64,000 bases of DNA from Vicinamibacteria bacterium (GCA_965199715.1 OZ241322.1:2189486-2253485); one strand, 5' to 3'. Shown: positions 44,193 through 63,582, counted from the stretch's first letter. Notes: generated by a model not told the origin, from the letters alone. Program-made: numbers and translations.

Positions 44193-44220
44193 GCGGCGCT
44201 GCTAGCCTTCCGCCCGCACC

Positions 44221-46463: not shown

Positions 46464-47302
46464 TGCGCGAGGCGCCGGTCGCCGCCGGCCTGTTCCTCGC
46501 GACGCTGGCCAGCACGATGTGGGTCGGAGCGCTCTTCTTCGGCTCCGGCGTCGCCTACTCGCTGCCGCTGCTGGCGATCCTCCTCAGCCACGAGGTGGGG
46601 CACTGGCTGACCGCCCGGCGCTGGCGGGTGGACGCGAGCCTGCCGTACTTCCTCCCGATGCCGTTCACGCTGGTGGGCACGCTCGGCGCGTTCATCCGCA
46701 TCCGCTCGCCGTTCCCCGACCGGCGATCGCTGATCGACGTGGGGCTCGCCGGCCCGTTCGCCGGGTTCGTGGTCTGTCTTCCGTTCCTCGCGCTGGGGGT
46801 GGCCGGCTCCCACGCCGGGCCTTCGGTCGAGGACGCGATCCGCTTCGGCGAGCCGCTGCTGTTCCGGATGTTCGCGGCCGCATTCGGGCCGGCGCTCGGG
46901 GAAGGGGAGTCGCTCTACCTGGGTCCGATGGGCCTCGCCGCCTGGTTCGGGCTGCTGGTCACCGCGATCAACCTGCTCCCGATGGGGCAGCTCGACGGCG
47001 GCCACGCGCTCTACGCGGCGTTCCGGGAGCGGGCGCATCGGATCTCGCGCCTCGTCCACCTCGCGATGATCCCGCTCGCGTGGTGGTCCCCCTCGTGGCT
47101 CGTCTGGGGCCTCCTGTGCCTGCTGCTCGGCGCCCGCCGCCCGCACCCGCCGACGCTCGACGACGAGGCGCCGCTGCCGAAGAGCCGCGTCCTCATGGCG
47201 GTCGCCGGAGTCGCGGTGTTCGTTCTGTGCTTCACCCCGGAACCGGTCGTCTTCGACTGGGCGGACGTGCTTCCCGTTGACAGGCCGGGAACCGAACCCT
47301 AA
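46463..47302 (+). CDS. M50-family site-2-protease-like zinc metalloprotease
   Basis: ATG overlaps the preceding stop (TGATG). HEVGH zinc motif in TM helix (LSHEVGHWLTARRW) and LLPMGQLDGGH third-ligand motif. Confidence 0.7.
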   Translation: MREAPVAAGLFLATLASTMWVGALFFGSGVAYSLPLLAILLSHEVGHWLTARRWRVDASLPYFLPMPFTLVGTLGAFIRIRSPFPDRRSLIDVGLAGPFAGFVVCLPFLALGVAGSHAGPSVEDAIRFGEPLLFRMFAAAFGPALGEGESLYLGPMGLAAWFGLLVTAINLLPMGQLDGGHALYAAFRERAHRISRLVHLAMIPLAWWSPSWLVWGLLCLLLGARRPHPPTLDDEAPLPKSRVLMAVAGVAVFVLCFTPEPVVFDWADVLPVDRPGTEP

Positions 47303-47335
47303 CTTTCCCGATGCGGGCCGCGCCCGCACCCCGCC

Positions 47336-48502
47336 ATGACCCCCGAACAACCCGACCGCGTCCGCATCTTCGACACGACGCTCCGGGACGGCGAGCAGTC
47401 GCCCGGATGCAGCATGGGTCTCGACGCCAAGCTCGAGATGGCTCGTCAGTTGGCGCGACTTCGGGTGGACGTCATCGAAGCCGGATTTCCCGCCGTCTCC
47501 GAGGGGGACCGGGAGGCCGTGCGCCGCATCGCCGGCGAGATCGAGGGACCGCGCATCGCGGCGCTCGCCCGCTGCGTGCATGGCGATATCGAAGTCGCCT
47601 GGGAGTCGCTGCGGGAGGCGCCCCGGCCCCGGCTGCATGTATTCCTCGCGACGAGCGCGCTCCACCGGGAGTTCAAGCTGCGGATGGCCCGAAAGGAGAT
47701 CGTCCGCCGGACGGTCGAGTCGGTGGGCCACGCCCGCGGCCTCGCCGGCGACGTGGAGTTCTCGCCCGAGGACGGCTCGCGCACCGAGCCGGACTTCCTC
47801 GCCGAGGTCGTCGAGTGCGCCATCGAGGCCGGCGCGACGACCGTGAACATCCCCGACACCGTGGGCTACGCGATGCCGGACGAGTTCCACGCGCTCATCT
47901 CCCACCTCCGGCGCACCGTCCCCAACATCGGCGAGGCGGTCATCAGCGTCCACTGCCACAACGACCTCGGCATGGCGGTCGCGAACAGCCTCGCGGCGGT
48001 CCGGGCCGGGGCGCGGCAGGTGGAGTGCACCGTGAACGGGATCGGCGAGCGGGCGGGGAACGCCTCGCTCGAGGAGGTCGTGATGAGCCTGCGCACCCGG
48101 CCGGACGTGTACGGCGTCGAGACCGGGGTCGCGACCCGCGAACTGTGCGCGGCCAGCCGCCGCCTCAGCCGCCTCACCGGGATGGCGGTTCAGCCGAACA
48201 AGGCCATCGTGGGCGCGAACGCCTTCGCCCACGAGGCGGGCATCCACCAGCACGGCGTGCTCAGCAACCGCCTGACGTACGAGATCATGGAGGCGGCCGA
48301 CGTGGGGGCCGACAGCGTCCTCGTGCTCGGCAAGCACAGCGGCCGGCACGCGCTCCGCTCGCGCCTCGAGGAACTCGGGTTCCGGGTGGCGGACGAGGAG
48401 ATGAGCGGCGTGTTCCGCGACTTCAAGCGGCTCGCCGACCGGCGCAAGGAACTCGACGACGCCGACCTGACCACGCTCATGGCGCAGCGGCGCCGGGCCT
48501 GA
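47336..48502 (+). CDS. leuA: 2-isopropylmalate synthase (short form lacking the C-terminal regulatory domain)
   Basis: [61 protein letters not shown]. It is followed by leuC and leuD. Confidence 0.85.
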
Positions 48503-48514
48503 CCCCCCCCCCCC
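48503..48514. repeat. Homopolymeric poly-C tract (12 nt) immediately after the leuA stop
   Basis: tga CCCCCCCCCCCC gttccttgcc, read directly from the sequence. Confidence 0.9.
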
Positions 48515-48519
48515 GTTCC

Positions 48520-49038
48520 TTGCCCGCCGCGCGCAGTCCCCGGGAGTCGCTCGAGAAGCGCCCGCTCCGCGTGCTGAAGGGCGTGGTGGAGGCCACGACT
48601 CCCGAGGCGCTCGCGGAGGCGGTCGGCCCGCTGGTGGCGAAGCGCCATCCGATCGAGGACTACCGCGCCGCCGCCCGGATCCTCGTCCGCGAGCGGGAGG
48701 TCGCCCGCGCCGAGCGCACCGGCGAGCCGATCCTCAGCGACGCCGAGAGCGGGGCGCTGCGCCGGGCGGCGAGCCGGCTCATCGGGCTGTCGCGGCCGTC
48801 GCCGCTCGCCGGACTCGCCGAGCCGGCCTTCCGGAAGATCGCCGCCGAGCGGAACCTCGAGAAGCTGGCGGAGCGGCTCGCCGAGCTGGACCCCGACGGC
48901 GGTTGGGAGGCGGCGCCCCGGGTCAGCCCGCTGCTCGCGATCCACCTCATCGCGGTCGTCACCGAGGAGGACCGCCGCTACCGGATCAAGGAGGCGGAGG
49001 ACGCCGCCCGAACCGGCGCGCTTCGGGAGACCGCGTGA
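48520..49038 (+). CDS. Hypothetical protein (~172 aa) inserted between leuA and leuC
   Basis: In-frame TTG 5 nt after the poly-C tract. [35 protein letters not shown]...[34 protein letters not shown]. Helical, not matched to a known family by eye. Its stop overlaps the leuC GTG (GTGA). Confidence 0.45.
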
Positions 49039-50420
49039 GCCGCACTCTCTTCGACCGCATCTGGGACGCCCACGAGGCGCTTCCCGCCGGGTCCGACCAT
49101 CCCGCGATCATCCGGGTGGACGTCCACCTCATCCACGAGGTCACCTCCCCGCAGGCGTTCACGCTGCTCCGCGAGCGCGGCCTTTCCGTCCGCCGACCGG
49201 ACCGGACGTTCGCGACGACGGACCACTCGACGCCCACCCGGTTCCGGGACGGCCGGCCGGTCTGGCTCGACCGGGCCGCGAAGCGGCAGGTAGCCGAGCT
49301 CCAGCGCAACTGCGAGGAGCACGACATCCCGATCTTCCCGCTCGGGGACCGCCGCCAGGGGATCGTGCACGTCATCGGGCCGGAGCTCGGGCTGACCCGG
49401 CCGGGCGACGTGCTCGTGTGCGGCGACAGCCACACGAGCACCCACGGCGCGTTCGGAGCGTGGGCGTTCGGGATCGGGACCAGCGAGGTCGCGCAGGTGC
49501 TCGCGACCCAGCATCTGCTCCAGGAGCGCCCGAAGACGCTCGCGGTGGAGGTCTCGGGCCGGCTCGCCGCCGGGGTGACCGCGAAGGACCTCGCGCTCGG
49601 GATCATCCGCCGGATCGGGGTCGATGGCGGGCGTGGCCACGTCATCGAGTACCGGGGCGAAGCGGTGCGCGGGCTCGGCATGGAAGCGCGGATGACGCTT
49701 TGCAACATGTCGATCGAGGCCGGCGCGCGGGCCGGGCTGATCGCGCCGGACGAGACCGCCTTCGCGTGGATCGAGGGCCGCGAGTACGCCCCGAAGGACT
49801 TCGACGGGGCGGTCCGCCGCTGGCGCGCGCTCGCGACCGACGAGGACGCCGTCTTCGACCGGACCCGGACGCTCGACGCCGGTACGCTCCAGCCGATGGT
49901 GACGTGGGGCACGAACCCGGGGATGAGCTGCGGGGTCGGCGAGGCGGTGCCGGCTCCCGACGGGCCCGAGGCGCGGGCGGCGCTCGAGTACATGGGGATC
50001 GAGCCGGAACGCCCCATCGCCGGGCGCCCGGTGGACGTGGTCTTCATCGGGAGCTGCACGAACTCGCGGATCTCCGACCTGCGCGCCGCGGCGGACGTGC
50101 TGCGCGGCCGGAAGACGCATCCGAACACGACCCTGCTGGTGGTGCCGGGGTCCGTCCAGGTCCGCGACCAGGCGCGGCGCGAGCGGCTCGACGAGGTGTT
50201 CGTGAGCGCCGGCGCCGAGTGGCGCGAGCCGGGCTGCTCGATGTGCATCGCGATGAACGGGGACCGGCTGGATCCGGGCCAGCTCGCGGTTTCGACCAGC
50301 AACCGCAACTTCGAGGGCCGGCAGGGCCCCCGCGGCCGGACGATCCTCGCGTCGCCGCAGACCGCGGCCGCGTCGGCGGTGCGGGGCGCGGTCGCCGACC
50401 CGAGGGAATTCGCCCGATGA
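49035..50420 (+). CDS. leuC: 3-isopropylmalate dehydratase large subunit
   Basis: Aconitase-family motifs ([64 protein letters not shown]). Confidence 0.9.
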
Positions 50421-50944
50421 AGCCCGTCCGCAGCTTCCGCTCCCGCGCCGTGGTGCTGCCGGCGGACCACGTGGACACCGACCAGATCATCCCGGCGCGC
50501 TTCTTGACCGCGACCGGGCGCGACGATCTCGGCGACGCGCTGTTCGCCGACTGGCGGAAGGCCCCGGACTTCCCGCTGAACGGCGCCGCGGACGCGGGAA
50601 TCCTCGTCGCCGGGTCGAACTTCGGTTGCGGCTCCTCGCGGGAGCACGCCGCGTGGGCGCTGCGCGACGCCGGGTTCCGGGCGGTGCTCGCCCCTTCCAT
50701 CGCCGACATCTTCCGGGGGAACGCGATCCGCAACGGCCTCGTGCCGGTCGAGCTTCCCTCCGAGGCGCTCGGGCGGATTCCCACCGGGGCCGAGGTGACG
50801 GTGAACGTGGAGGCCGAGTCGGTCACGCTCCCGGACGGCTCGACCGAGCGGTTCGCGCTCCCCCGGTTCGGGCGGCGCTGTCTGCTTTCCGGGCTCGGGC
50901 CGCTCGACTTCCTGCTGGAGAACCTTCCGGCGACGGATGGCTGA
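50417..50944 (+). CDS. leuD: 3-isopropylmalate dehydratase small subunit
   Basis: ATG overlaps the leuC stop (ATGA). [15 protein letters not shown]-type N-terminus ([17 protein letters not shown]), [17 protein letters not shown]. Confidence 0.9.
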
Positions 50945-51509
50945 GCGAGTTCGCTGCGGCTGGGCCGAAGGGCGCTCCCCGCTCTACGTCCGCTACCACG
51001 ACGAGGAGTGGGGCGTCCCGGTCCGGGACGACCGCGTCCAGTTCGAGTTCCTCGTGCTGGAGTCGGCGCAGGCCGGACTGAGCTGGGAGACGATCCTGAA
51101 GCGGCGCGAGGGATACCGGGAGGCGTTCGCCGGATTCGACCCCGAACAAGTCGCTCGCTTCGACCGGGACCGGATCGGGGAGCTGCTGCTGCGCCCGACG
51201 ATCATCCGCAACCGCGCGAAGGTCGAGTCCGCCGTCGGCAACGCCGCCCGGTTCCTCGAGGTCCAGGCCGAGTTCGGGTCGTTCTGCCGGTACGTCTGGG
51301 GCTTCGTGGGCGACCGCCCGATCGCCCGGCTCCGGCGGACGGACGCGGACGTTCCGGCGACCTCGCCCGAGTCGGACGCGCTCGCCCGGGACATGCGCCG
51401 CCGCGGCTTCCGCTTCGTCGGGCGCACGATCCTGTACGCGCACATGCAGGCCACCGGACTCGTGAACGACCACGTCCTCGGCTGCTTCCGCCGTCGGCAG
51501 TTAGGCTAG
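50937..51509 (+). CDS. tag: DNA-3-methyladenine glycosylase I
   Basis: Tag family pattern (CGWAEGRSPLYVRYHDEEWGVPVRDD, FEFLVLESAQAGLSWETIL, zinc-ligand HMQATGLVNDHVLGCF at the C-terminus). 8-nt overlap with leuD. Confidence 0.85.
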   Translation: MAERVRCGWAEGRSPLYVRYHDEEWGVPVRDDRVQFEFLVLESAQAGLSWETILKRREGYREAFAGFDPEQVARFDRDRIGELLLRPTIIRNRAKVESAVGNAARFLEVQAEFGSFCRYVWGFVGDRPIARLRRTDADVPATSPESDALARDMRRRGFRFVGRTILYAHMQATGLVNDHVLGCFRRRQLG

Positions 51510-51514
51510 GCGGC

Positions 51515-52636
51515 GTGCGCGCGCTGCTCTTGGTCCTCGCCGGCGCGGTCCTCGCGTCGTGCGGCGAGGGAGTCTCCGGAACCCCGGCGCCGCCGCCCGC
51601 CCCGGACCGGCCGCCGCGCCAGATCATCGGCCTCGAGACGGTCGCCCCCCGCACGGAAATCCGGATCGGGCAGGCGGTCGGGCCGCTCGTGGTCTATGGC
51701 GTGTACGACGACGACACGACCGGCACCGTGACGGCGACGCTCGTCTCCTCGGACCCGGGCGTGGTCCGGATCGACGACGAGGGACGCGCCGTGGGCGCCG
51801 GCGTCGGCATGGCGGTCGTGACCGCGAGCTTCGAGGGGTTCGAGACGGAACTGGAGTTCGAGGTCGAGGACCCGATCCCAAGAAGCGTGCGGGACCGCCC
51901 CGACGACCTGAGCGGCCCGCAGATCCACTTCATCTACGCGGTGCCGAGCGATATCGAGGACCGCAACCGGGACCGCTTCGGCGAGCTGGAGCGCTCGGCG
52001 CTGGCCCTTCAGGCGTGGGTCGAGGAGGAGACCGGCCAGCGGCTGCGGATCGACACCTTCGAGGGGCGGCCCGACGTGTCGTTCCTGCGGGCCTCGTTCA
52101 CCCATCAGGAGGGCGACGGCACGGTCGGGCGGACGGTGGCCGATCTCCTCGACGACGCGCAGCGGCTGCAGCTCAGGGGCGACAAGATTCCGGTCTTCTA
52201 CTACGAGGGCCGGGTCGTCGGCCTTTGCGGCAGCGCGTACTTCGGCGGGGGCGGCGCCGTGTACCTCGACTGCTCGGACGCGGAGCTCGGGCGGGACGAG
52301 TTCACCGTCTCCACCTTCGAGGCCGTCATGGTGCACGAGATCTTCCACGTGTTCGGCGCGGTGCCGGAGTGCGCCCCCAACTTCATCGAGGGCTGGCACG
52401 TCGAGGACCTGAACGACGACATCATGTTCGCCGGGACCGACCGGTCCCCCAGGGGCGGGGTGTCCTACATCGACGTGGGGCGCGACGACTACTGGGGCCA
52501 CGGCCGCTCCGACTGCCTCGACGTCAGCCGCAGCCGGTTCCTCGAGCCCGTCTCCGGCTCGGCGCTGCGGGCGGGCTCGGTCGAAGTGCGGATTCCGGGA
52601 CCGGACTGGCCGCTTCGCTGCGGAGTCGGCCGATGA
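51515..52636 (+). CDS. Lipoprotein with Big_2-like Ig domain and an HExxH zinc-metallopeptidase-like motif
   Basis: GTG start 6 nt after tag. Lipobox VLASCGEG. Ig-like segment (VTATLVSSDPGVVRIDDEGRAVGAGVGMAVVTASF). Putative metal site AVMVHEIFHVFG. Confidence 0.6.
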   Translation: MRALLLVLAGAVLASCGEGVSGTPAPPPAPDRPPRQIIGLETVAPRTEIRIGQAVGPLVVYGVYDDDTTGTVTATLVSSDPGVVRIDDEGRAVGAGVGMAVVTASFEGFETELEFEVEDPIPRSVRDRPDDLSGPQIHFIYAVPSDIEDRNRDRFGELERSALALQAWVEEETGQRLRIDTFEGRPDVSFLRASFTHQEGDGTVGRTVADLLDDAQRLQLRGDKIPVFYYEGRVVGLCGSAYFGGGGAVYLDCSDAELGRDEFTVSTFEAVMVHEIFHVFGAVPECAPNFIEGWHVEDLNDDIMFAGTDRSPRGGVSYIDVGRDDYWGHGRSDCLDVSRSRFLEPVSGSALRAGSVEVRIPGPDWPLRCGVGR

Positions 52637-54225
52637 TCCGGCTCCTCCTGCTGGCGGGGCTGGCGCAGGCGCAGCCGGCGGATCTGCTGATCCGGGACGC
52701 GCGGGTCGTCGATGGGACCGGAAGCCCGTGGTTCCGGGCGAACGTGGCGGTGGACGACGGAACGATCGTCTCGGTCGGCGCGGCGACGCCGGAAGCGAGA
52801 GACGTGATCGACGCCCGGGGCCTCGTTCTCGCGCCGGGGTTCGTGGACATGCACGCCCACTCCGAGTACGGGATGATCGTGGATCCGAGAGCGCTCTCGA
52901 AGGCGGCGCAGGGGGTCACCACCGAGGTGCTCGGCGAGCACCTTTCCGCCGGCCCGGTGCTCGGCCCAGCCGTGAACGACCCGATGATGGTCGCGCCGCC
53001 GATCCAGCGCGACTGGACGACGCTCGGCGGCTACTTCGACCGTCTCGAGCGGCAGGGAGTGGGCGTGAACGTGCTCTCCTATGTCGGCTCCGGGCAGGTC
53101 CGGGCGTCGGTGATCGGATACGAGGAGCGCGCCGCCAGCCGCGACGAGATGGACGCGATGAAGGAGCTCGTCCGGGAAGGCATGGAGGACGGCGCCTTCG
53201 GGGTCGCGAGCGGCCTCGCCTACATCCCGAACGCCTTCGCCGACACGGCCGAGCTCACCGAGCTGGCGCGGGTCGCGGCGGGGCTCGGCGGAATCTACGT
53301 GAGCCATCTGCGGGGCGGAGCGGAAGGCCTGCGCGAGGGAATCCGGATCGCCCGCGACGCCGGGACCGCGCTTGAGATCCACCACCTGAACTCGACGTCG
53401 GGCTCCCGCATCCCCGAGTTCGCCCGGATCATCGCCGAGGCGCGGGCGTCGGGGGTGGACGTCACCGGCAACGTGTACCCCTACATCGCCGGCTGGACCT
53501 ACCTGCGGTCGCTGCTGCCTCGCTGGGCGCAGGAAGGCGGGGTCGATCGGATGCTCGGACGGATCGTCGATCCGAACGAGCGGGAGCGCCTCCTCGCCGA
53601 GCTTCGCGCCGGCGAGGCCGAGCGCCCCCGCTGGGGCCGCACGTTCGTGAGCTCGTTCCGCGAGGGGGTGGACGGACTCTCGATCGTCGATCTGGGCGCC
53701 TCCCGCGGAACGTCTCCCGAGGAGGCGCTGCTGGATCTCCTCGTCGAACAGGAGGGCGACGGGTTCCAGATCTCCTTCGGCAACACCGAGGCGAACCTCG
53801 TCCAGGCGCTGGCGCTGCCGTTCACCCACATCGGCTCCGACGGCAGCGCGCTCGCGATCGGGATGCGCACCCCGATGGGCAAGCCGCACCCGCGTTCGTT
53901 CGGGACCTATCCGCGGGTGTTCGCGAAGTACGTCCGCGAGGAGCGGCTGTTCTCGCTGGAGGAGGCCGTCCGGAAGATGACCTCGGCCCCGGCGAACCGG
54001 CTCGGCCTCGCCGACCGGGGCCTGGTCCGTCCGGGGATGCGGGCCGACCTCGTCCTCTTCGACCCGGACGCGGTCGAAGACCGGGCGACGTTCGAGGAGC
54101 CGGAGCGCTACCCGTCGGGGATCCCGTGGGTGTTCGTGAACGGCGTCGCGGTCATTCGGGAGGGGGAGCCGACCGGCGCCCTTCCCGGCGAGGTGCTGCG
54201 CGGCCCGGCGTGGCGCGGCCGCTGA
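52633..54225 (+). CDS. N-acyl-D-amino-acid deacylase (D-aminoacylase) family amidohydrolase, secreted
   Basis: ATG overlaps the preceding stop (ATGA). Signal peptide MIRLLLLAGLAQAQ. Metal-site motifs PGFVDMHAHSEY, VSHLRG, IGSDGSA. Confidence 0.8.
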   Translation: MIRLLLLAGLAQAQPADLLIRDARVVDGTGSPWFRANVAVDDGTIVSVGAATPEARDVIDARGLVLAPGFVDMHAHSEYGMIVDPRALSKAAQGVTTEVLGEHLSAGPVLGPAVNDPMMVAPPIQRDWTTLGGYFDRLERQGVGVNVLSYVGSGQVRASVIGYEERAASRDEMDAMKELVREGMEDGAFGVASGLAYIPNAFADTAELTELARVAAGLGGIYVSHLRGGAEGLREGIRIARDAGTALEIHHLNSTSGSRIPEFARIIAEARASGVDVTGNVYPYIAGWTYLRSLLPRWAQEGGVDRMLGRIVDPNERERLLAELRAGEAERPRWGRTFVSSFREGVDGLSIVDLGASRGTSPEEALLDLLVEQEGDGFQISFGNTEANLVQALALPFTHIGSDGSALAIGMRTPMGKPHPRSFGTYPRVFAKYVREERLFSLEEAVRKMTSAPANRLGLADRGLVRPGMRADLVLFDPDAVEDRATFEEPERYPSGIPWVFVNGVAVIREGEPTGALPGEVLRGPAWRGR

Positions 54226-54962
54226 GCGCGCTCCCGGCGGAGCTTCGGGCGCGCTGCCGGGACGGGAGCTTCCGGGGCACGACCTCGGGGCTCGCTCCCG
54301 GCTTCGCGCAGGCGAACCTCGTGGTCCTCCCCGGCGCGCTCGCCGCCGACTTCCGCCGCTTCTGCGAGCGGAACCCGCGCCCGTGTCCGCTGCTTCACGA
54401 CGCCGAGTCGGGGGCGGACTTCCGCACCGACCTGCCGCGCTACGTGGTGCGCCGGCGGGGAGCGTCGCCCCGCGAAACGCTCGACGCGACCGCCGACTGG
54501 CGCGACGACTTCGTCCCGTTCCTGCTCGGGTGCAGCTTCGGCTTCGAGGCGGCGCTCGTCGAGGCCGGGATTCCGCTGCGCCACCGGGACCAGGGCCGGA
54601 TCGTGCCCATGTACGCGACCCGCCGGCGCTGCGAGCCGGCGGGGCGGTTCCGCGCGCCGCTCGTGGTCACCATGCGTCCGATTCCGCGCCGGCGGGTCGC
54701 CGACGCGATCGCGATCTGCCGGGACTTCCCGCTGGCGCACGGCCCGCCGGTGCACGTCGGCGACCCCGCCGAACTCGGGATCGCGGACCTCGCCCGGCCG
54801 GACTGGGGCGACGACTGCGGGATCGGCCCGGACGACGTCCCCGTCTTCTGGGCGTGCGGCGTCACTTCGCAGCTCGCGGTCGAGGCCGCCGACGCCGAAG
54901 TCTCGATCACCCACGCTCCCGGCCACATGTTCGTGACCGACCTTCCCTCGAGAACCTCATGA
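54210..54962 (+). CDS. DUF1445-family protein (putative hydro-lyase / D-glutamate cyclase-like)
   Basis: GTG start overlaps the 3' end of the D-aminoacylase gene by ~16 nt. N-terminus PAELRARCRDGSFRGTTSGLAPGFAQANLVVLP matches the characteristic DUF1445 start. Confidence 0.7.
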   Translation: MARPLSALPAELRARCRDGSFRGTTSGLAPGFAQANLVVLPGALAADFRRFCERNPRPCPLLHDAESGADFRTDLPRYVVRRRGASPRETLDATADWRDDFVPFLLGCSFGFEAALVEAGIPLRHRDQGRIVPMYATRRRCEPAGRFRAPLVVTMRPIPRRRVADAIAICRDFPLAHGPPVHVGDPAELGIADLARPDWGDDCGIGPDDVPVFWACGVTSQLAVEAADAEVSITHAPGHMFVTDLPSRTS

Positions 54963-57373
54963 CAGCCCGAATGACCGCCGCCGCGCTTCTCGTCGCGGTC
55001 GCCGCCGACGCCCAGTGGACGAACCGGTATCCCAAGCTCGAGGGCTACTCGCACCACGTGTACGCCGAGGGCTACGAACTGCCCATCTTCGCGACCGGCC
55101 CTACGGATCCGGCCCCGGCGCCCGACGGGCGGACGATCGCGTTCGCCGCCCGGGGCTGGCTGTGGCTTCTGGACGAGGAGACCGGGGTCGCGCGAAGGCT
55201 CACGAGCGGCGCGGCGGTGGATTCCCGCCCGGCGTGGCGGCCCGACGGCGCGGCTCTCGCCTTTCTGCGCGACGACAGCCTCACGCTCTCGATCTGGACG
55301 CTGGATCTCGCGAGCGGCGAGGAGTCGCGCCGGTTCGCCGACGACTCCATGGTGCTGGATCCGGCGTGGTCGCCCGACGGCGCGTCGCTCTATTTCAGCG
55401 CCGCGACCGCGGGCGACCTTGACGTCTGGCGGCTCGACGGCGAGACCGGCGAACCGGCGCGGGTCACGACGCGCCGCGGCCTCGAGGTCCGGCCCCAGCC
55501 GCTCGCGGACGGCGGGCTCGCGTACATGGCCAAGGGCCGCGGAACCGGAGACGCGGTGGTCGTGCGCGCCGCCGACGGGACGGAGTCGGTGCTGCGCTCG
55601 GAGTCCATCGCCTCGCAGGCGCGTCCGAGCGCCGATCCCGAGGGCCGGTCGCTCGCCGTGAACTGGCCCGCCGGGGACGGAGCCGACGGCTATCGGCTGA
55701 TGCTGCTGGACGCCGCGGGCGGCGACGCGATCGAGCTCGTCGCGGCGCGGGGGCTCCCGGTGGCCCCGGTGTTCGCCGCCGACGGGAAGTCGGTGCTCTA
55801 CGCCGAGGCCGACGAATCGGAGACGTTCCGGCTCAAGCGGGTCTCCGCGTGGGGCGGCCCGGTGGAGGAGGTTCCGATCCGGGCGTGGGACTACGGCGCT
55901 CCCACCGGGCGGGTCCGGATCGCGACCCGCGCCGGCGGGAAGCCCGTCGCGGCGCGGTTGGCGGTGCTCGACGGCTCGTCGCATCCGGCGGCTCCGGAGT
56001 CCGCGATGGCGCGCTTCGACGGAACCCACGGGCGCATCTACTTCTATTCGCCGGGAACGATCGAGATGGAGCTTCCGGTCGGCGGCGAGGCGCGCGTGAC
56101 CGCGACCCACGGCCTCGCGCACCTTCCGGCGGAGGCGGCGTTCTCCGTCCGCGCCGGCGAGACCGTGACCGTCGAACTTGACTTCGAGCGGATCTGGGAT
56201 TCGACCGGGTATCGGTCCGGCGACCACCACTATCACCTGAACTACGGCGGGCCCACCCGTCTGGACCCGGACGACATGGTCGTGATGCTGGCCGGCGAGG
56301 CTCTCGACGTCGGGACGCCGCTCATGGCGAACCTGCACCACCGGCTGAACGACACGGAGTTCTTCGCCGAGCGGCGGCTCGCGGACGCCCCGGCGTTCGT
56401 GTTCGGGCAGGAGGTGCGGTCCCACTTCCTCGGACACCTGGGGATCGTCGGGCTCGAAAGCGCCTTCCAGCCGTGGTTCTGGGGCCCCGGCTACCCGGTG
56501 TACGCGGACGACGACCGCCCGAATGCGGACGCGCTGGCGCACTCGCGGCGCGAGGGAGCGGTGAGCGCCTACATGCACCCGGTCTCGGTGGAGGCCCCGT
56601 TCGAGGACCCGGGCCTGTCCTCGATCCCGGTGAGCCTGATCCCCGACGCGGTGCTCGGCGACCTCGACACGCTGGAGATCGCGTGCCTGTGGACGAACGA
56701 GCTCGGGACCGCCCGCGTCTGGGAGCGGGTGCTCATGCTGGGCGTCCCGCTCGCCGCGTCCGCCGGAACCGACGTGATGCTGGACTTCCACCGCACCATG
56801 GCGGTCGGGACCACGCGCATCTACGTGGAGGCTCCCGGGCCGTTCCAGCTCGGGCCGTACCTGCGAGCGCTCAAGGCGGGCCGGAGCTTCGTGACCACGG
56901 GGCCGCTCATGGACTTCCGCGTCGGCGGCATGCGGCCCGGCGACGCGGTCGCGTCCGGCGAGACCGCATGGACGCTGGAGCTCGCCTCGACCGGGCCGGT
57001 GGAGACGGTCGAGATTCTCGTGAACGGGGAGATCGTGGAGACGCGGCCCGGCCTTGCGGCGGCCGGGTCGGAACGTCTCGAGGGCTCGGTCACGCTGCCC
57101 GAAGGCGGGTTCGTCGCGGCGCGGGCGCGCGGCGCGGAGGAGGGTTGGCCGGGCATGAACGGCGCCGCCTTCGCGCAGACGTCCCCGATCTGGATCGGAC
57201 GGGTCGGCAGCTTCGACCCGGACGCGGCCAGCCGGGCGGCGACGGATCTCCTGCGGGCGCTCGACGTCGCCGAGGCGCGGGTGGACGCGCGCTACGGGGA
57301 CGCGCCGATCCCCCGCATTCGCGCCCGCTTCGCCATGGCCCGGGAACGGCTCGGCGAGTTTCTCCAGCCTTGA
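54959..57373 (+). CDS. TolB-like beta-propeller fused to CehA/McbA-type (PHP-like) metallo-hydrolase domain
   Basis: ATG overlaps the DUF1445 stop (ATGA). Signal peptide, then repeats (AWRPDGAALAF, AWSPDGASLYF, FAADGKSVLY), then GDHHYHLNYG metal site and a large C-terminal domain. Confidence 0.7.
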   Translation: MTARMTAAALLVAVAADAQWTNRYPKLEGYSHHVYAEGYELPIFATGPTDPAPAPDGRTIAFAARGWLWLLDEETGVARRLTSGAAVDSRPAWRPDGAALAFLRDDSLTLSIWTLDLASGEESRRFADDSMVLDPAWSPDGASLYFSAATAGDLDVWRLDGETGEPARVTTRRGLEVRPQPLADGGLAYMAKGRGTGDAVVVRAADGTESVLRSESIASQARPSADPEGRSLAVNWPAGDGADGYRLMLLDAAGGDAIELVAARGLPVAPVFAADGKSVLYAEADESETFRLKRVSAWGGPVEEVPIRAWDYGAPTGRVRIATRAGGKPVAARLAVLDGSSHPAAPESAMARFDGTHGRIYFYSPGTIEMELPVGGEARVTATHGLAHLPAEAAFSVRAGETVTVELDFERIWDSTGYRSGDHHYHLNYGGPTRLDPDDMVVMLAGEALDVGTPLMANLHHRLNDTEFFAERRLADAPAFVFGQEVRSHFLGHLGIVGLESAFQPWFWGPGYPVYADDDRPNADALAHSRREGAVSAYMHPVSVEAPFEDPGLSSIPVSLIPDAVLGDLDTLEIACLWTNELGTARVWERVLMLGVPLAASAGTDVMLDFHRTMAVGTTRIYVEAPGPFQLGPYLRALKAGRSFVTTGPLMDFRVGGMRPGDAVASGETAWTLELASTGPVETVEILVNGEIVETRPGLAAAGSERLEGSVTLPEGGFVAARARGAEEGWPGMNGAAFAQTSPIWIGRVGSFDPDAASRAATDLLRALDVAEARVDARYGDAPIPRIRARFAMARERLGEFLQP

Positions 57374-57408
57374 CAGGCGAGCGCGTCGGGCCGAGTATCC
57401 GCGCCGGA

Positions 57409-58665
57409 ATGCGACGGATCGCGGGGCTCCTCCTCGTCGCGCTCGCGGCGGCGTCCGCGCCGGAAGCGCAGACGCGGCCCCGGGTGTTCTTCGACTGCTC
57501 CGGCCCCCGGTGCGACTCGCGCTACTACCGGACCGAAATCGCCTGGGTGCACTGGGTGAACGACCGCCAGGACGCGCAGGTGCACCTCATCATGACCAGC
57601 CAGAACACCGGCGCCGGAGGGCGGGAGTACCTGCTGGACTTCGCCGGCGCCGGCGACCACGCGGATTACGTGGACCAGCGCCGCTTTCGTTCGCTGCCGA
57701 CGGACACCGATCGGGAGACGCTCGACGGGATCGCCCGCGCGCTCGCGCTCGGGCTCGCCGCGTTCGCCGAGGAGGCCGGATACCGGGGACTGGTCACGCT
57801 GCAGCCGGCGGACCGGGTCGAGGAGGCGGTGGAGCGCGGCGTGGTCTCCGGCGACGAAGTGGAGGACCCGTGGAACCTGTGGGTGTTCCGGATCGAAACC
57901 GAGGCGGGGATCGAAGGGGAGTCGCAGTCCCGGAGGACGAATCTGGAGGGCGGGTTCTCCGCGTCCCGCGTCACCCCGGACTGGCGGATCCGCTTCTGGG
58001 GCGACGTGAACCACGACCGCTACTCCATCGACCTCACCGACGGGACGTTCGAGGACCACCGGACCGGCTGGGACCTCGCGTCGCGCACCGTGTACGCGCT
58101 GCTCGACCACTGGTCCGCCGGAATCGACCTGAGCGCGTCCCGCAACGTGAACTACAACCAGGACTTCCGCGTCGAAGCCTCGCCGGCGATCGAGTACAGC
58201 GTCTTCCCCTACGAGGAGGCCACGCGCCGCAGCTTCACCTTCTACTACACGCTCGGCCCGGCGTACCGGGACTACGTGGAGCGGACCATCCACGGCGAGA
58301 CCTCCGAGACCAGGTGGGAGCAGGCGATGGACGTCCGCTTCAGCCAGCGGCAGCGATGGGGCAACGCCTCGGTGAACCTGCGGGGGTCGCACTTCCTCCA
58401 CGACCTCGGCCAGCGGCTGGTCCGGCTCGGAAGCTACCTTTCGGTGCGGGTCGTGCGCGGCATCGAGCTCAGCGTCTCGGGCAACGTGAGCTGGGTGAAC
58501 GACCAGATCTACCTGCCCGCAGGCGCGGCGACCGACGTGGAGGCGTTGCTCCAGCTCCAGCAGCGGGCGACGGACTTCGACTACGGGGTCGAGATCGGCT
58601 TCGAGTTCCAGTTCGGCTCGATCTACAACAACGTGGTCAACAACCGGTTCGGCCGCCGCTTCTGA
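57409..58665 (+). CDS. Putative outer-membrane beta-barrel protein (DUF481-like), hypothetical
   Basis: Signal peptide MRRIAGLLLVALAAASAPEAQ. Alternating amphipathic strands rich in Y/W/F. C-terminal aromatic residue (..NNRFGRRF), typical of OMP barrels. Confidence 0.5.
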   Translation: MRRIAGLLLVALAAASAPEAQTRPRVFFDCSGPRCDSRYYRTEIAWVHWVNDRQDAQVHLIMTSQNTGAGGREYLLDFAGAGDHADYVDQRRFRSLPTDTDRETLDGIARALALGLAAFAEEAGYRGLVTLQPADRVEEAVERGVVSGDEVEDPWNLWVFRIETEAGIEGESQSRRTNLEGGFSASRVTPDWRIRFWGDVNHDRYSIDLTDGTFEDHRTGWDLASRTVYALLDHWSAGIDLSASRNVNYNQDFRVEASPAIEYSVFPYEEATRRSFTFYYTLGPAYRDYVERTIHGETSETRWEQAMDVRFSQRQRWGNASVNLRGSHFLHDLGQRLVRLGSYLSVRVVRGIELSVSGNVSWVNDQIYLPAGAATDVEALLQLQQRATDFDYGVEIGFEFQFGSIYNNVVNNRFGRRF

Positions 58666-58940
58666 TGGGTCCCCGAACGCCGGAGATTCTCGAGACCGAG
58701 CGCGCCTACCTGCTCGCCAACGCGAAGGAACTTGCCGCCAAGTATCCTGGGAAGCACCTGCTCATCAAGGGCGAGACCGTTTACGGCGCCTTCGAGACGC
58801 GCAACGAGGGAGTGGATCGCGGGTTCCAGTTGTTCCCGAGGGAGTCGTTCCCGGTGCGCTCGGTGCTGCGCCCGGAGGATCCGGAACCGGTGATCGTTCC
58901 GGTCCTGGCGTTGGGTCTTCCCGTCATTGCCGATCCTTGA
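58665..58940 (+). CDS. Small hypothetical protein (91 aa), possibly DUF5678/DUF4926-like
   Basis: ATG overlaps the preceding stop (TGATGG). MGPRTPEILETERAYLLANAKELAAKYPGKHLLIKGETVYGAFETRNEGVDRGF. Weak family guess only. Confidence 0.35.
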   Translation: MGPRTPEILETERAYLLANAKELAAKYPGKHLLIKGETVYGAFETRNEGVDRGFQLFPRESFPVRSVLRPEDPEPVIVPVLALGLPVIADP

Positions 58941-59114
58941 CGCCAGACTTCCGGCGCCTGGCCGGGATTGGCTCGAGCGGTGCGGTGAGCTCTTTCCGAC
59001 GGCGATCCTGCGGACTTGATCGCCCTGATCGGGCGCGACGCGCTCGAGGGCGCGATCCTCATCTGCAACGGCGTGGACGGCTCGTTCTCGCTCTCCTCCG
59101 TGTAGCCCCGCCCG

Positions 59115-60464
59115 TCAGTGCGGCCGGTCCTGACGGGGGATGAGCAGCAGCCGCTCCGCCCGCGGATCGATGTACCAGGTGGACTCGCCGTCGAACAGCG
59201 CGTCCTCCTCCAGCGCGATCCGCACCTCCTGGCCGCCCCACTCGGGCACCGGAACCCGCGCGTTCAGCTCGATCGAGTGCGCGGTCATCGGGAAGAGCGG
59301 GTAATCGCCCTTTCCGGGCACGCCGTCCTGCCGGTCCCACAGACCGATCGTCGGCCCGGCGCCGTGCCCGTGGTAGCCGATCGGGTGCGTGTAGATGGAT
59401 GCCTTGATCCCCTCCACGCTGGCCTGCTCGAGCGCCGCGCCCAGGATCTCGTTGCCGCTGCGCCCGGCGACGAACTCGGCGGTGAGGACGTCCTGGAGCC
59501 GGTTGCCGATCCGAAGCGCCTCGCGCAGCCCCTCCGGCGCGTCCGTCTCGCCGGGCCGCAGCACGTAGGCGTTCATCTGCGTGTCCGTGTTCAGCCGCAG
59601 GTAGGTGATCCCGAAATCCACGTGGATCAGGTCGCCCGGCAGGATCACGTTCGGCGCCGGCCGGGCCGAGTAGTCCTCGCGCAGTTCCTCCGCGCCGGTC
59701 TCGTGGCGCTGGACCGAGACGCCCGGCTGGAACCACGCCTGCAGCTTGAGTTCGCGGATCTTCTCCCGGTACCACCACGACACGTCGTCGGTCGTCGTCG
59801 CGCCGGGCTGGATCACCTCGCCCGACAGCCCCTCGGAGAGGATCCAGCGGGCGAGCCGCACCACGCCGGGATAGACCTCCATCTCCTCGGGCGTCCTCGT
59901 CTCGAGCCACGCGATCGCGAGCCGCTCGACCCCCTTCAACCGGCTCGCGAGCTCCGGCCCGAGCGCCGCCCGCATCGCGGCGTTCTCGCTCGCCGTGAAC
60001 CCGTCGGCGAGGCCGAAGTCCTCCGACCAGTTGATTCCGATGACGTCGGGGTCGCGCTCCCGCACCAGCTCGGCGACCCGCGCCCACTGGTCGGGCTCGT
60101 TGTCGGGATCCCACGCCCTCGGGATGCCGCCGATGTCGTAACGGGCCACCGCGAGCCGCTCCACGCCCTCGGCCGGACCCCGGTCGTGGAACATCAGCAC
60201 CGTCCGCCGCCGCGCCGCGAGCCACGTGTACGGCAGCATCGTGCGGATCACCGGATCCTCGTTGTACTCGCGGGCGGCCACGATCCACAGGTCCACGCCC
60301 TCCCGCCGCATGATCTCCGGCAGCACCGTCTCGAAGCGGACCTCGAGCCAGCGATCCACGAGCGCAGCGCGTTCGCGCATGGGAAGGACGCTCGGCTGCG
60401 CCGGGGCGACGGACGCCGCGCAGGCGAGCAGCAGGAACGGGGGAAGGACGCGGCGAAGGGTCAC
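59115..60464 (-). CDS. M24-family metallopeptidase (Xaa-Pro aminopeptidase-like), secreted
   Basis: Start taken at the GTG giving signal peptide MTLRRVLPPFLLLACAASVAPAQP. The C-terminal pita-bread fold carries His motifs (HPIGYHGHGAGP, E..ELNARVPVPEWGGQEV) and the N-terminal creatinase-like domain. Confidence 0.75.
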   Translation of the reverse strand: MTLRRVLPPFLLLACAASVAPAQPSVLPMRERAALVDRWLEVRFETVLPEIMRREGVDLWIVAAREYNEDPVIRTMLPYTWLAARRRTVLMFHDRGPAEGVERLAVARYDIGGIPRAWDPDNEPDQWARVAELVRERDPDVIGINWSEDFGLADGFTASENAAMRAALGPELASRLKGVERLAIAWLETRTPEEMEVYPGVVRLARWILSEGLSGEVIQPGATTTDDVSWWYREKIRELKLQAWFQPGVSVQRHETGAEELREDYSARPAPNVILPGDLIHVDFGITYLRLNTDTQMNAYVLRPGETDAPEGLREALRIGNRLQDVLTAEFVAGRSGNEILGAALEQASVEGIKASIYTHPIGYHGHGAGPTIGLWDRQDGVPGKGDYPLFPMTAHSIELNARVPVPEWGGQEVRIALEEDALFDGESTWYIDPRAERLLLIPRQDRPH

Positions 60465-60508
60465 GGGCGGGCTCCTCGGGGGGCCGGAAGGATACCGGTA
60501 CACTCGAA

Positions 60509-62092
60509 TTGCGGAGGCTCTCCATGCGACGACTCGTTCCCTTCCTGCTCGGCTTGGCGCTGACCGGCTGCGCCGAGTCGTACGACGTGATCCTCGTCGG
60601 AGGCGAAGTCGTTGACGGCGGAGGAGAACCGGCGCGGTCGGCGGACGTCGGCATCCGCGGCGACCGAATCGCGGCGGTCGGCGATCTGATGTGGGCGCGC
60701 TCGCCGATGCGGGTGGACGTCTCCGGCCTGACGGTCGTTCCGGGGTTCGTGGACATCCACTCCCACGCGGTCCGCGGGGTCATGCGCCATCCGCTCGCCG
60801 AGAACTACCTCCGCCAGGGGGTCACGACCGCGGTGGGCGGCCCCGACGGCGGCTCTCCGCTGCCGATCGGCGCCTGGCTCGACGACTTCGAGGCCGAGGG
60901 CTCCGCGATCAACATGGCGCTGCTCGTGGGGCACGGAACCGTGCGCCGCGAGGTCCTCGGCATGGAGGACCGGGCGCCGACGCCCGGCGAGCTGGAGACG
61001 ATGCGGGGGCTCGTCGATACGGCGATGCGGGAAGGGGCCTGGGGCCTCTCCACCGGCCTCAAGTACACGCCCGCGGCCTTCGCCGAGACCGAGGAAGTGA
61101 TCGAACTCGCGAAGGTGGCCGCCCGGTATCGCGGCGTCCACATCAGCCACATGCGCGAGGAGGGGCTCGCGCTCATGGACGCGGTGCGCGAGACGATCCG
61201 CATCGGCGAGGAGGGCGGCCTGCCCACCCAGCTCACCCACCACAAGGTCGTCGGGGCGCCGATGTGGGGCCGCAGCGTCGAGAGCCTGCGGCTCGTGGAC
61301 GAGGCGGTCGCCCGGGGCGTGGACGTGACCATCGACCAGTACCCGTACACCGCTTCCTCCACCGGGCTCACGATCCTGTTCCCGGCGTGGAGCCTCGCCG
61401 GCGGCGGCGACGCGCTGCTGGAACGCCTCGCCGATCCCGACCAGCGCGAGGCGATTCGGCTCGCGGTGCGCGAGAACCTCGACGTGGATCGGGGCGGCGG
61501 CAGCCCCGACAATGTCGTGATCGCCCGCTGCGCGTGGGACCCGTCGCTCGAGGGGAAGAGCCTCGGCGACATCCTCCGCGAACGCGGCCTCGAGCCGACC
61601 ACCGACGAGGGCGCGACCCTCGCGCTGGAGCTTCAGGAGAAGGGCGGGTTCGGCGGCGTCTTCCACGCGATGCACGAGGACGACGTGCGGCGGATCATGG
61701 CCCACCCGCGGACGATGATCGCGTCCGACGGCGGCGTGGTGGCCCCGGGAGAGGGCGTGCCCCACCCGCGCAACTACGGAACGTTCGCCCGGGTGCTGAG
61801 CCTCTACGTGCGCGAGGGCGGGCTGTTCAGCTTCGAGGAGGCGATCCACAAGATGAGCCGGATGCCCGCGGACCGGCTCGGGCTCTCCGACCGGGGCCGG
61901 ATCGAGGACGGCGCGATCGCCGATCTCGCGGTTCTGGACCCGGACGCCGTCGAGGAGCATGCGAAGTTCGGGGATCCGCACCACTACTCCACCGGAGTCG
62001 GCCACGTGATGGTCGCCGGCGAGTTCGTGCTGCGCGACGGCGAGGTCACCGGAGCTCGCCCCGGTCGGGCCCTGCGCAACCCGGGCTCGTGA
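60509..62092 (+). CDS. N-acyl-D-amino-acid deacylase (D-aminoacylase) family amidohydrolase, lipoprotein (second paralog)
   Basis: Lipobox LLGLALTGCAES. Motifs PGFVDIHSHAVRG, ISHMRE, IASDGG. Same order of blocks as the 52633 paralog. Confidence 0.8.
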   Translation: MRRLSMRRLVPFLLGLALTGCAESYDVILVGGEVVDGGGEPARSADVGIRGDRIAAVGDLMWARSPMRVDVSGLTVVPGFVDIHSHAVRGVMRHPLAENYLRQGVTTAVGGPDGGSPLPIGAWLDDFEAEGSAINMALLVGHGTVRREVLGMEDRAPTPGELETMRGLVDTAMREGAWGLSTGLKYTPAAFAETEEVIELAKVAARYRGVHISHMREEGLALMDAVRETIRIGEEGGLPTQLTHHKVVGAPMWGRSVESLRLVDEAVARGVDVTIDQYPYTASSTGLTILFPAWSLAGGGDALLERLADPDQREAIRLAVRENLDVDRGGGSPDNVVIARCAWDPSLEGKSLGDILRERGLEPTTDEGATLALELQEKGGFGGVFHAMHEDDVRRIMAHPRTMIASDGGVVAPGEGVPHPRNYGTFARVLSLYVREGGLFSFEEAIHKMSRMPADRLGLSDRGRIEDGAIADLAVLDPDAVEEHAKFGDPHHYSTGVGHVMVAGEFVLRDGEVTGARPGRALRNPGS

Positions 62093-63582
62093 GCGCGTCC
62101 CGCTCGGTCGTCGCCGCCGTCGATCAGGGAACCACCAGCAGCCGTTGCCTGCTCTTCGACCGGAGCGGGCGGGTCGTCGGCGCCGCGCAGCGCGAGCACC
62201 GCCAGATTACGCCGGACCGGGGCCTCGTCGAGCACGACGCGGCGGAGATTCGGGACCGGGTGTTCGAGACCGCCGCCGGGGCGCTCGCGTCCGCCGGCCT
62301 GACCGGCGCGGACGTGGCTGCGGTCGGGATCACGAACCAGCGCGAGACGACGGTCGTCTGGGACCCCGAGACCGGCGAGCCGCTCGCGCCCGCGATCGTG
62401 TGGCAGGACACCCGCACCCGCGCCCTCGCCGACGGATTCGCGGAGAGGGTGGGAGCCGAGCGGCTGCGGGAGATCACCGGGCTGCCCGCGGCGACGTACT
62501 TCTCGGGCCCGAAGCTGCAGTGGCTGCTCCGCAACGTCCCGGATCTGCCGGAGCGGGCGCTCTTCGGAACGGTCGATTCGTGGATTTTGTGGAACCTGAC
62601 CGGGGACCGCCGGCACCTCACCGACGCGACCAACGCGAGCCGCACCCAGATGATGGACCTCGCCGACTGCCGCTGGAGTCCAGAACTGCTGGAGGCGCTC
62701 GGGGTTCCCGCGCGGATGCTGCCGGAGATCGTGCCGTCGTCGGATCCCGAAGCGTTCGGCCGGACGAAGGCGGACGGCCCCTTCGGCGCGGAGATCCCGA
62801 TCGCCGGCGTGATCGGCGACCAGCAGGCGGCGCTCCTCGGCCAGCAGTGCCGCCGGCCCGGCGAAGCCAAGTGCACCTACGGAACCGGCGCGTTCCTGCT
62901 GCTTCACACGGGATCCCGACCGGTTCCCTCTTCTTCGGGGATGCTCACGACGGTCGCCTACGCCGACCGAACCGGGGTCGAGTACGCGCTGGAGGGCGCG
63001 GTGGCGGTCGCCGGGTCGCTCGTCCAGTGGCTGCGCGACCAGCTCGGGTTCGCCGACACGGCGGCCGCGGTCGAGAAGCTGGCGCTCGACGTTCCCGACA
63101 CCGGGGGCGTGTACGTCGTCCCCGCGTTCTCGGGCCTATTCGCCCCGTGGTGGCGCGCCGACGCCCGCGGCGTGATCTGCGGGCTGACCCGGTTCGCCGA
63201 CCGCCGCCACCTTGCCCGCGCCGCCCTCGAGGCGACGGCGTTCCAGGTCGCCGACGTGCTCGAGGCGATGCGCAAGGACACGGGCGAGCCGATTTCCGAG
63301 CTGCGCGTCGATGGCGGGATGACGGTGTCCGACCTGCTGCTCGGATTCCAGGCGGACATCCTCGGCGTGCCGGTGGTGCGCCCCGTCCAGCGCGAGACGA
63401 CCGCGCTCGGGGCCGCGATCGCGGCGGGCCTCGCCGTCGGATTCTGGGAGTCGGGAGCGGACCTCCGCGCCGCGCTCGCCGAGGACGCCCGCTTCGAGCC
63501 GGGCATGGAGGCGGAGGAGCGCGAGAACCGAATGGCCGACTGGCGGCGGGCGGTGGAGCGCAGCCTCGACTGGGCGCGGTGA
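62089..63582 (+). CDS. glpK: Glycerol kinase
   Basis: GTG overlaps the preceding stop (GTGA). FGGY kinase family motifs (VAAVDQGTTSSRCLLFD, GITNQRETTVVWD, KCTYGTGAFLL, GGMTVSDLLLGFQADILGVPVVRP). Confidence 0.9.
   Translation: MSASRSVVAAVDQGTTSSRCLLFDRSGRVVGAAQREHRQITPDRGLVEHDAAEIRDRVFETAAGALASAGLTGADVAAVGITNQRETTVVWDPETGEPLAPAIVWQDTRTRALADGFAERVGAERLREITGLPAATYFSGPKLQWLLRNVPDLPERALFGTVDSWILWNLTGDRRHLTDATNASRTQMMDLADCRWSPELLEALGVPARMLPEIVPSSDPEAFGRTKADGPFGAEIPIAGVIGDQQAALLGQQCRRPGEAKCTYGTGAFLLLHTGSRPVPSSSGMLTTVAYADRTGVEYALEGAVAVAGSLVQWLRDQLGFADTAAAVEKLALDVPDTGGVYVVPAFSGLFAPWWRADARGVICGLTRFADRRHLARAALEATAFQVADVLEAMRKDTGEPISELRVDGGMTVSDLLLGFQADILGVPVVRPVQRETTALGAAIAAGLAVGFWESGADLRAALAEDARFEPGMEAEERENRMADWRRAVERSLDWAR

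Follow-up and report, generated by a model that had tools for sequence, protein, structure and literature searches.

Does a short run of genes in an uncultured bacterium encode a dedicated route for D-glutamate? The question is raised by positions 51,515 to 57,373 of a 64,000-nucleotide stretch of DNA from a Vicinamibacteria bacterium (GCA_965199715.1 OZ241322.1:2189486-2253485), referred to here as the window, in which genes for a lipoprotein with an HExxH motif (gA), a D-aminoacylase-like protein (gB), a DUF1445 protein (gC) and a propeller-bearing hydrolase (gD) follow one another. The setting is a long, tightly packed same-strand run in the genome of an uncultured marine member of the Acidobacteriota (Vicinamibacteria-like). 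A sequence-only reading of this region had proposed an operon headed by gA in which a D-aminoacylase feeds a D-glutamate cyclase. Our preferred explanation, held tentatively, is a lineage-specific cluster of envelope hydrolases plus a cytoplasmic DUF1445 enzyme, scavenging peptides and N-acyl or D-amino-acid-terminated fragments. The locus probably serves peptide scavenging of an ordinary kind and not a dedicated D-glutamate pathway, and the comparison of gene order among relatives indicates that gC and gD are its sole evolutionarily stable pair, gB having joined in one sublineage.

Gene structure of the locus

Genes were called from a frame plot of third-position G+C (GC3), start-codon candidates and exact look-up in a public protein collection; raw open reading frame (ORF) lists were full of spurious frames because of the G+C content of the window (69-77%). 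The products of gA to gF are present in the collection with identical lengths, and the calls for these genes are identical on same-organism contigs.

51515-52636, plus strand: gA, 373-residue lipoprotein, metzincin-like
52633-54225, plus strand: gB, 530 residues, D-aminoacylase-like Amidohydro_3 protein
54210-54962, plus strand: gC, 250 residues, DUF1445/UPF0317 protein
54959-57373, plus strand: gD, 804 residues, TolB/S9-type propeller and CehA/McbA domain
57370-58665, plus strand: gE, 431 residues, TTG start, putative outer-membrane barrel
58665-58940, plus strand: gF, 91-residue ORF, no family match

The frame plot, the starts and the look-up agree with the sequence-only reading on four same-strand genes, gA to gD, and on their junctions: an ATGA at 52633-52636 (gA/gB), a 16-nucleotide overlap at 54210-54225 (gB/gC) and an ATGA at 54959-54962 (gC/gD). 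The extent of a four-gene operon stood only in part, as the junctions hold while the end at 57373 does not: gE overlaps gD by 4 nucleotides and gF overlaps gE by 1. gF has coding-type GC3 and a start that overlaps the gE stop, with no Pfam or NCBIfam match even at E = 10 and no tblastn match beyond the same-organism contigs L001-L003. Upstream, the plus-strand run is unbroken from 41690 through ilvE, namZ, an M50 peptidase gene, leuA, leuC, leuD and tag, the last of which ends 5 nucleotides before gA starts.

Gene overlaps at this locus are not above the genome background. Across the whole window, 17 of the 29 same-strand neighbour pairs overlap, including the unrelated pairs leuD-tag and gH-glpK (gH is a second D-aminoacylase-like gene, described below). 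As overlap is the default in this genome, it is not evidence of shared function. This bears on the explanation that there is no shared pathway at all, the genes being independent and tightly packed on one strand with gC-gD as synteny inherited within one clade, which we judge somewhat unlikely. The overlap counts speak for it, as do the conservation of the gH-glpK pairing itself in relatives and the presence of ilvE, namZ, the M50 peptidase gene, leuA, leuCD and tag ahead of gA in the same run; four or five consecutive exported hydrolase-type proteins, however, are more thematic than random. A scan of positions 44000-63900 yielded no promoter-like sites and 7 terminator-like sites, compared with 4.6 expected, and defined no transcription units. 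Neither the Rfam scan nor the tRNA scan of the window gave a match.

Conservation of gene order in relatives

Of the two closest relatives, L086 has leuC-leuD-tag-gA-gB-gC-gD-gE as in the window (gD 78%, gB 83%, gC 71% and gE 79% identical), and the sister genome L087 (gD 79%) has the same backbone with gA followed directly by gD and gE, lacking gB and gC. At L004/L005, L007 (Candidatus Marinacidobacterium, Vicinamibacteria), L089 and L110, nothing but gC followed by gD is kept; gD is 68-69% identical at these loci, the genes upstream are entirely different, and gA, gB and gE were not found. The proposed order gA-gB-gC-gD is thus confined to the window organism and L086 and does not reach beyond close relatives, and the same two genomes are the only ones in which gB adjoins gC. 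The gC stop and the gD start, on the other hand, overlap or lie at most about 20 nucleotides apart in every gC-gD locus (the window, L086, L004/L005, L007, L089 and L110).

The absence of a shared pathway can be weighed against this pattern. The arrangement gA-gD-gE persists in L087, from which gB and gC were either lost or always absent, and in a neighbour-joining tree all gD-linked DUF1445 proteins fall in one clade, so that the gC-gD linkage arose once; both observations are in keeping with independent genes. On the contrary side, the gC-gD adjacency (with 4 nucleotides shared, or about 20 at most between the genes) persists at 63-70% protein identity, with the other flanks wholly changed, as at L004, where ribosomal protein genes lie upstream. 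One locus of the same DUF1445 clade without gD (L006, Vicinamibacterales) was set aside as uninformative, its neighbours being an integrase gene and unannotated ORFs.

Two further genes travel at a distance. Orthologs of gG, which encodes an M24-like peptidase (77-82% identical), and of gH (72-80%) lie 6-10 kilobases downstream of gC-gD in L004/L005 and L007, and L110 has the gG ortholog only (79%), at the end of the locus.

The segment that leads up to gA in the window (44221-51509: ilvE, namZ, the M50 peptidase gene, leuA, a gene for an unknown 172-residue protein, leuC, leuD and tag, then gA) is conserved in L086, L087 and L170. The genes of this backbone lie on one strand with overlapping ends and are mixed in function: leucine biosynthesis, an exo-MurNAc'ase, a DNA glycosylase and the metzincin-like lipoprotein. 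Homologs of gA elsewhere are solitary or follow leuCD-tag and precede pilMNOPQ, and do not occur with gB-gD. As they track leuCD-tag or stand alone, we assign gA to the upstream backbone, outside the hydrolase block, and this counts against gA as the head of a D-glutamate operon.

Among 76 more distant gD homologs (40-57% identity), DUF1445 was never nearby. These loci have S9, M14 and S15 peptidase genes around them, and six have an Amidohydro_3 D-aminoacylase-like gene by gD (L122, L123, L132, L140, L152 and L156). It lies within about 1 kilobase downstream of gD in L140, L152 and L156 (same strand) and in L122 and L123 (convergent), and about 6 kilobases away in L132. The recurrence of the gD-Amidohydro_3 combination is weak.

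Neighbourhoods of DUF1445 genes

The sequence-only reading had tied DUF1445 to D-aminoacylases, a link that should be visible where homologs of gC occur in other genomes. We surveyed 80 diverse loci (L006-L085, 47-63% identity to gC) from Acidobacteriota, Rokubacteria, Chloroflexota, Cyanobacteria, Actinomycetota, Pseudomonadota, Planctomycetota, Bacillota and one archaeon; neighbouring ORFs were clustered and the largest clusters annotated, and tblastn searches were conducted separately with the window proteins. Only two loci had a D-aminoacylase homolog within 10 kilobases of DUF1445 by tblastn, leaving 78 of 80 without one. The L007 homolog is the gH ortholog, not gB, at a distance of 9 kilobases, and the one in L080 is encoded on the opposite strand and has about 30% identity. 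The proposed link was therefore not borne out, with nearly every neighbourhood lacking the partner it names.

The partners that did recur near DUF1445 were:

CT_A_B (PxpC): 28 of 80 loci
LamB_YcsF (PxpA): 27 of 80 loci
GLUCM-like_C (DUF4392): 15 of 80 loci, most directly adjacent and on the same strand
hydantoinase/oxoprolinase A: 12 of 80 loci

Of the 80 loci, 56 had one or more partners of the Pxp, DUF4392 or hydantoinase/oxoprolinase kinds within 6 kilobases, and amino-acid ABC transporter genes were also recurrent. As these neighbours are 5-oxoproline/lactam genes, a role of DUF1445 in 5-oxoproline/lactam chemistry is supported, and the pattern suggests DUF4392 and ATP-dependent lactam-opening enzymes as the functional partners of DUF1445. 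The DUF1445-DUF4392 link implies that a stand-alone DUF1445 protein may need a DUF4392 partner. Examples of DUF1445 with an adjacent DUF4392 gene (L024:10001-11636 and L055:10001-11788) are a split form of the mammalian cyclase fusion.

The DUF1445 protein gC

Domain searches leave the 54210 ORF in the family first assigned to it, with matches to PF07286 (204 bits, E 1.2e-60) and to NF003969 (333.5 bits, above the cutoff of 324). The family is called 'putative hydro-lyase' in NCBIfam and D-Glu_cyclase in Pfam. Relatives in the PDB are 3DB9 (E 5e-80) and 2PIF (E 3e-74), and a 30-sequence alignment of gC homologs (A1) has 54 invariant columns. A signal peptide is absent from gC and its homologs, which assigns the protein to the cytoplasm. 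An earlier start at 54126, which would add 28 residues and a candidate signal peptide, was rejected, as the added segment is Arg/Gly-rich without a hydrophobic core; it is also ruled out by homolog N-termini without signal peptides and by the recorded product of 250 residues.

The conversion of D-glutamate to 5-oxo-D-proline is the sole reaction known for any protein with a DUF1445 domain. It is catalysed by D-glutamate cyclase (mouse 9030617O03Rik/human C14orf159, DGLUCY; EC 4.2.1.48); the mouse enzyme, a DUF1445+DUF4392 fusion, was assayed in its entirety, and the authors of that work singled out DUF4392 as its racemase-like portion. No stand-alone bacterial DUF1445 protein with demonstrated cyclase activity was found in the literature searched, and no DUF4392 (PF14336), pxp or hydantoinase genes were found among the window genes scanned. 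The assignment of gC as the D-glutamate cyclase step is accordingly not supported, since that activity is known only for the mammalian fusion and the window is without DUF4392.

The D-aminoacylase-like proteins gB and gH

As the sequence-only reading had it, gB is a D-aminoacylase-like member of Amidohydro_3 (PF07969, E 1.3e-25), its closest solved relative being the N-acyl-D-glutamate deacylase 3GIP (E 6e-65), followed by the A. faecalis D-aminoacylase 1M7J (E 5e-61); the 3GIP score exceeds that of the general D-aminoacylase by only about 13 bits. In alignment to the solved enzymes the metal and catalytic residues HxH, His, His and Asp are kept (vdmHaHse, vsHlr, eihH, igsDg), together with the carboxylate-binding Tyr of YPY (nvYPYiag) and Arg of HPR (kpHPRsfG); in D-acylases this Tyr (PYP/YPY) and Arg bind the substrate carboxylate (PMC12149444). 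Specificity for D-glutamate is set by Arg295 (Bb3285 numbering), which binds the D-glutamate side chain. After YPYIAGWTYL, gB is not alignable to 3GIP or 1M7J by sequence (phmmer, whole protein and sub-fragment); R292 and R297 lie near the Arg295 region, in a register relative to Bb3285 that cannot be fixed. As the Arg295 segment is not alignable, gB cannot be assigned D-glutamate specificity. The N-terminus of gB is short, hydrophobic and of signal type, and is kept in the L086 ortholog (83% identical); this conservation makes gB probably an exported protein.

The second D-aminoacylase paralog, gH, is present where it had been described, among three genes downstream of gF:

59115-60503, minus strand: gG, exported M24-like peptidase
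60509-62092, plus strand: gH, D-aminoacylase-like lipoprotein
62089-63582, plus strand: glpK, glycerol kinase, ATGA overlap with gH

gH scores 300 bits against the A. faecalis D-aminoacylase and E 4e-76 and 2.5e-88 against solved D-acylases. Its ATGA overlap at 62089 joins it to glpK, whose product passes the GlpK equivalog cutoff. The coupling of an exported amidohydrolase to a cytoplasmic kinase is odd but conserved, with the order M24-gH-FGGY kept in L004/L005; L007 keeps the M24 gene and gH, and its locus ends within gH.

These results bear directly on a dedicated D-glutamate salvage, in which gA and gD would degrade peptidoglycan stems or poly-gamma-D-glutamate, gB would free D-glutamate and gC would cyclise it to 5-oxo-D-proline. 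Such a pathway draws support from the identity of the best solved relative of gB (by about 13 bits), from the membership of gC in PF07286 and the general linkage of DUF1445 genes to 5-oxoproline enzymes, from the peptidoglycan-recycling-type genes of the window (namZ and a GH3+PBP4B-like fusion), and from the gH and M24 genes that remain near gC-gD in relatives. We nevertheless consider it improbable, given that gB adjoins gC in two close genomes only, that DUF1445 loci are almost uniformly without a D-aminoacylase homolog, that cyclase activity belongs to a fusion whose DUF4392 half is missing from the window, and that the D-glutamate-specifying Arg295 is not locatable in gB. In addition, no 5-oxo-D-proline-using enzyme is encoded nearby, and the GGT gene lies 37 kilobases away. 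If true, the D-glutamate reading would give the first bacterial context for a D-glutamate cyclase, and a route using the D-glutamate of peptidoglycan or poly-gamma-glutamate.

The propeller hydrolase gD and the putative barrel gE

gD carries a signal peptide, an N-terminal TolB/S9-type beta-propeller with PD40 repeats and a C-terminal CehA/McbA (PHP-type) metallohydrolase domain, in agreement with its first description as a TolB-propeller/PHP hydrolase. Residues 417-746 match NF038032 at 176.8 bits (cutoff 80) over model positions 1-314 of 315, and the metal-ligand-type residues H424, H426, E485, H489, H493, H540 and D605 are invariant in 31 homologs. The propeller superposes on those of TolB, tricorn and S9 peptidases, and the architecture looks like that of a propeller-gated hydrolase with a PHP-type metal centre. 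Identification of gD as TolB itself was rejected, as its TIGR02800 score of 89.6 falls short of the 343.15 cutoff and the match is confined to the propeller part of the model; the TolB N-terminal domain was not detected in gD.

The CehA/McbA family includes periplasmic carbamate-ester hydrolases (carbaryl hydrolases), and this opens a different explanation of the stable pair: a pathway of two steps in two compartments that acts on an amide, carbamate or lactam other than a peptide. Here gD would be the periplasmic enzyme that cleaves the compound and gC would act on the product once imported, with gB, gA and gE as later, unrelated additions. The conservation of gC-gD as the sole pair across the clade and the company that DUF1445 elsewhere keeps with ATP-dependent lactam-opening enzymes would both fit. 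We give this pathway little credence, however, because the distant gD homologs are without DUF1445, L087 retains gD without gC, and the propeller is most like those of peptide-handling proteins.

gE follows gD in both L086 and L087 (orthologs 72-79% identical). The protein begins with a signal peptide, shows the periodicity of amphipathic strands and ends in Phe, and its family comprises 2391 representative clusters (E<=1e-3) of about 420-450 residues, with a conserved FDC..C near the N-terminus and a C-terminal FGSIxNNVVNxRF. Pfam and NCBIfam searches with gE even at E = 10 gave only a weak DUF481 match; weak matches to DUF481 were obtained for 11 of 36 family members (best E 1.4e-5), besides sporadic ones to OMP_b-brl, MipA and Porin_2, and the family profile had no match in the PDB. 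From these features gE is probably an outer-membrane beta-barrel, distantly related to DUF481, and a large uncharacterised DUF481-like family of putative outer-membrane proteins, without a Pfam model, is now defined.

The lipoprotein gA

The description of gA as an HExxH lipoprotein was confirmed by a lipobox (LASC), the motif HEIFH at residues 274-278 and a metzincin-like fold. An N-terminal Big_2-type Ig domain precedes the C-terminal metzincin-like zinc peptidase domain, in which H295, D302 and M304 are invariant. No Pfam or NCBIfam model matched gA, even at E = 10. Its family has only 78 members, in Acidobacteriota, and a small uncharacterised family of metzincin-like lipoproteins is thereby defined.

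Weighing the explanations

Export signals are present on gA, gB, gD, gE, gG and gH and absent from gC and its homologs. The general layout of exported hydrolases (gA, gB, gD and gE) alongside a cytoplasmic enzyme (gC) therefore stands, while a dedicated coupling to D-glutamate is not supported; nor is a D-aminoacylase feeding a D-glutamate cyclase, with gB beside gC in two closely related genomes only. The scavenging cluster that we prefer could operate as follows. gA, as a metzincin-like endopeptidase lipoprotein, would cleave polypeptide chains; the propeller of gD would admit oligopeptides or small amides or esters for trimming, as in S9 peptidases; gB would hydrolyse the N-acyl or peptidyl bond adjoining a free alpha-carboxylate; and gC would convert an imported product, probably by glutamate/5-oxoproline-type (lactam) chemistry. 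The gene structure, the families, the location signals and the synteny pattern are established directly, whereas co-transcription, every substrate and any flux from gB or gD to gC are inferred. A more novel reading strikes us as unlikely. It is a previously undescribed two-compartment salvage built on a translationally coupled gC-gD pair, in which peptides from the environment or the cell wall would yield D-glutamate, or a related glutamyl or lactam compound, through gD (aided by gB in this sublineage), for conversion by gC in the cytoplasm.

Several observations weigh against the scavenging cluster. Tight overlaps also couple clearly unrelated genes (leuD-tag, gH-glpK), so adjacency carries little functional weight in this genome, and with no promoter or terminator signal above chance co-transcription is unproven. 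The gC-gD linkage has a single origin, so it could reflect common descent of the gene order and no joint function. A periplasmic product would also have to reach gC, and the cluster encodes no inner-membrane transporter for it. As for gB, it lacks the bridging Cys of classical D-aminoacylases, as do some 'cluster B' deacylases (PMC12149444); neither gB (254.6 bits) nor gH (225.1 bits) reaches the 340-bit cutoff of NF006560 (PRK09061); and relatives in the gB amidohydrolase family also deacetylate sugars (OngB).

None of the proteins in the cluster falls outside known families or folds, and islands rich in peptidase genes, as here, are typical of Acidobacteriota and Gemmatimonadota from the sea and from soil. 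Acidobacteria that scavenge peptides commonly pack many exported hydrolases in same-strand runs, and adjacency alone is no sign of a pathway. What is somewhat unusual is that, in one clade of Vicinamibacteria, an exported propeller/PHP hydrolase stands where the usual DUF1445 partners would, as the outcome of a single evolutionary event.

Other genes of the window

The M24 peptidase and M28, S9 and GGT genes noted elsewhere in the window are present. The upstream Aminotran_4 gene was rejected as a D-amino-acid transaminase, as NCBIfam identifies it as ilvE (398.9 bits, cutoff 307), and the HMGL and aconitase genes were rejected as lysine-pathway genes, being leuA and leuC by NCBIfam. Positions 36663-39497 encode a 944-residue fusion of GH3 (NagZ-like beta-N-acetylhexosaminidase) and a beta-lactamase/PBP4B/AmpH-like domain, which may be a peptidoglycan-recycling enzyme. 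A Mutator/IS256-family transposase gene (27927-29177, E 2e-100), followed by a small HNH-like ORF (29483-29734), is the only obvious mobile element. On the minus strand, 31310-36625 encodes a 1771-residue protein with PD-(D/E)XK nuclease and UvrD-type helicase domains (AddA/AddB-like fusion). The protein encoded at 406-2301 carries CBS domains at its C-terminus together with a GCS2 (glutamate-cysteine ligase family 2) domain, and a long plus-strand ORF at about 25100-26524, missed by the GC3 filter, has NUDIX and metallo-beta-lactamase domains.

Comparison with known systems

gA is metzincin-like in fold, resembling OgpA/M11-like enzymes, adamalysins, archaemetzincin and ulilysin. Where the canonical metzincin motif is HExxHxxGxxH/D, gA has HEIFHVFGAVP and is missing the third ligand (H/D at +11); an invariant His 17 residues further on may stand in as the third metal ligand.

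gB and gH are similar to the D-acylases 3GIP and 1M7J over their full length, and both share with D-acylases the HxH, His, His and Asp residues plus the YPY and HPR motifs. There are also differences. In place of the bridging Cys of classical D-aminoacylases (Cys96 in A. faecalis, GNCG), gB has GE-H and gH has GPDG; the gB insert is longer and non-alignable where the side-chain specificity residue sits; and, in contrast to the solved enzymes, gB and gH carry export signals. gD resembles propeller-gated S9 peptidases and tricorn, but has a PHP-type metallohydrolase domain in the place of their serine hydrolase domain; like McbA, which is exported, it has an export signal.

gC is a full-length member of the same family as the bacterial UPF0317 proteins Atu3911 (3DB9), PSPTO_5379 (2PIF) and B. 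subtilis YcsI, and it shares the PF07286/UPF0317 domain with DGLUCY, which adds DUF4392, whereas gC has no such partner. The B. subtilis arrangement ycsF-ycsG-ycsI-kipI-kipA matches the DUF1445-oxoprolinase neighbour pattern of the survey. Bacterial DUF1445 genes usually stand beside DUF4392, PxpA/PxpC or hydantoinase/oxoprolinase genes, whereas the conserved neighbour of gC is an exported propeller/PHP hydrolase.

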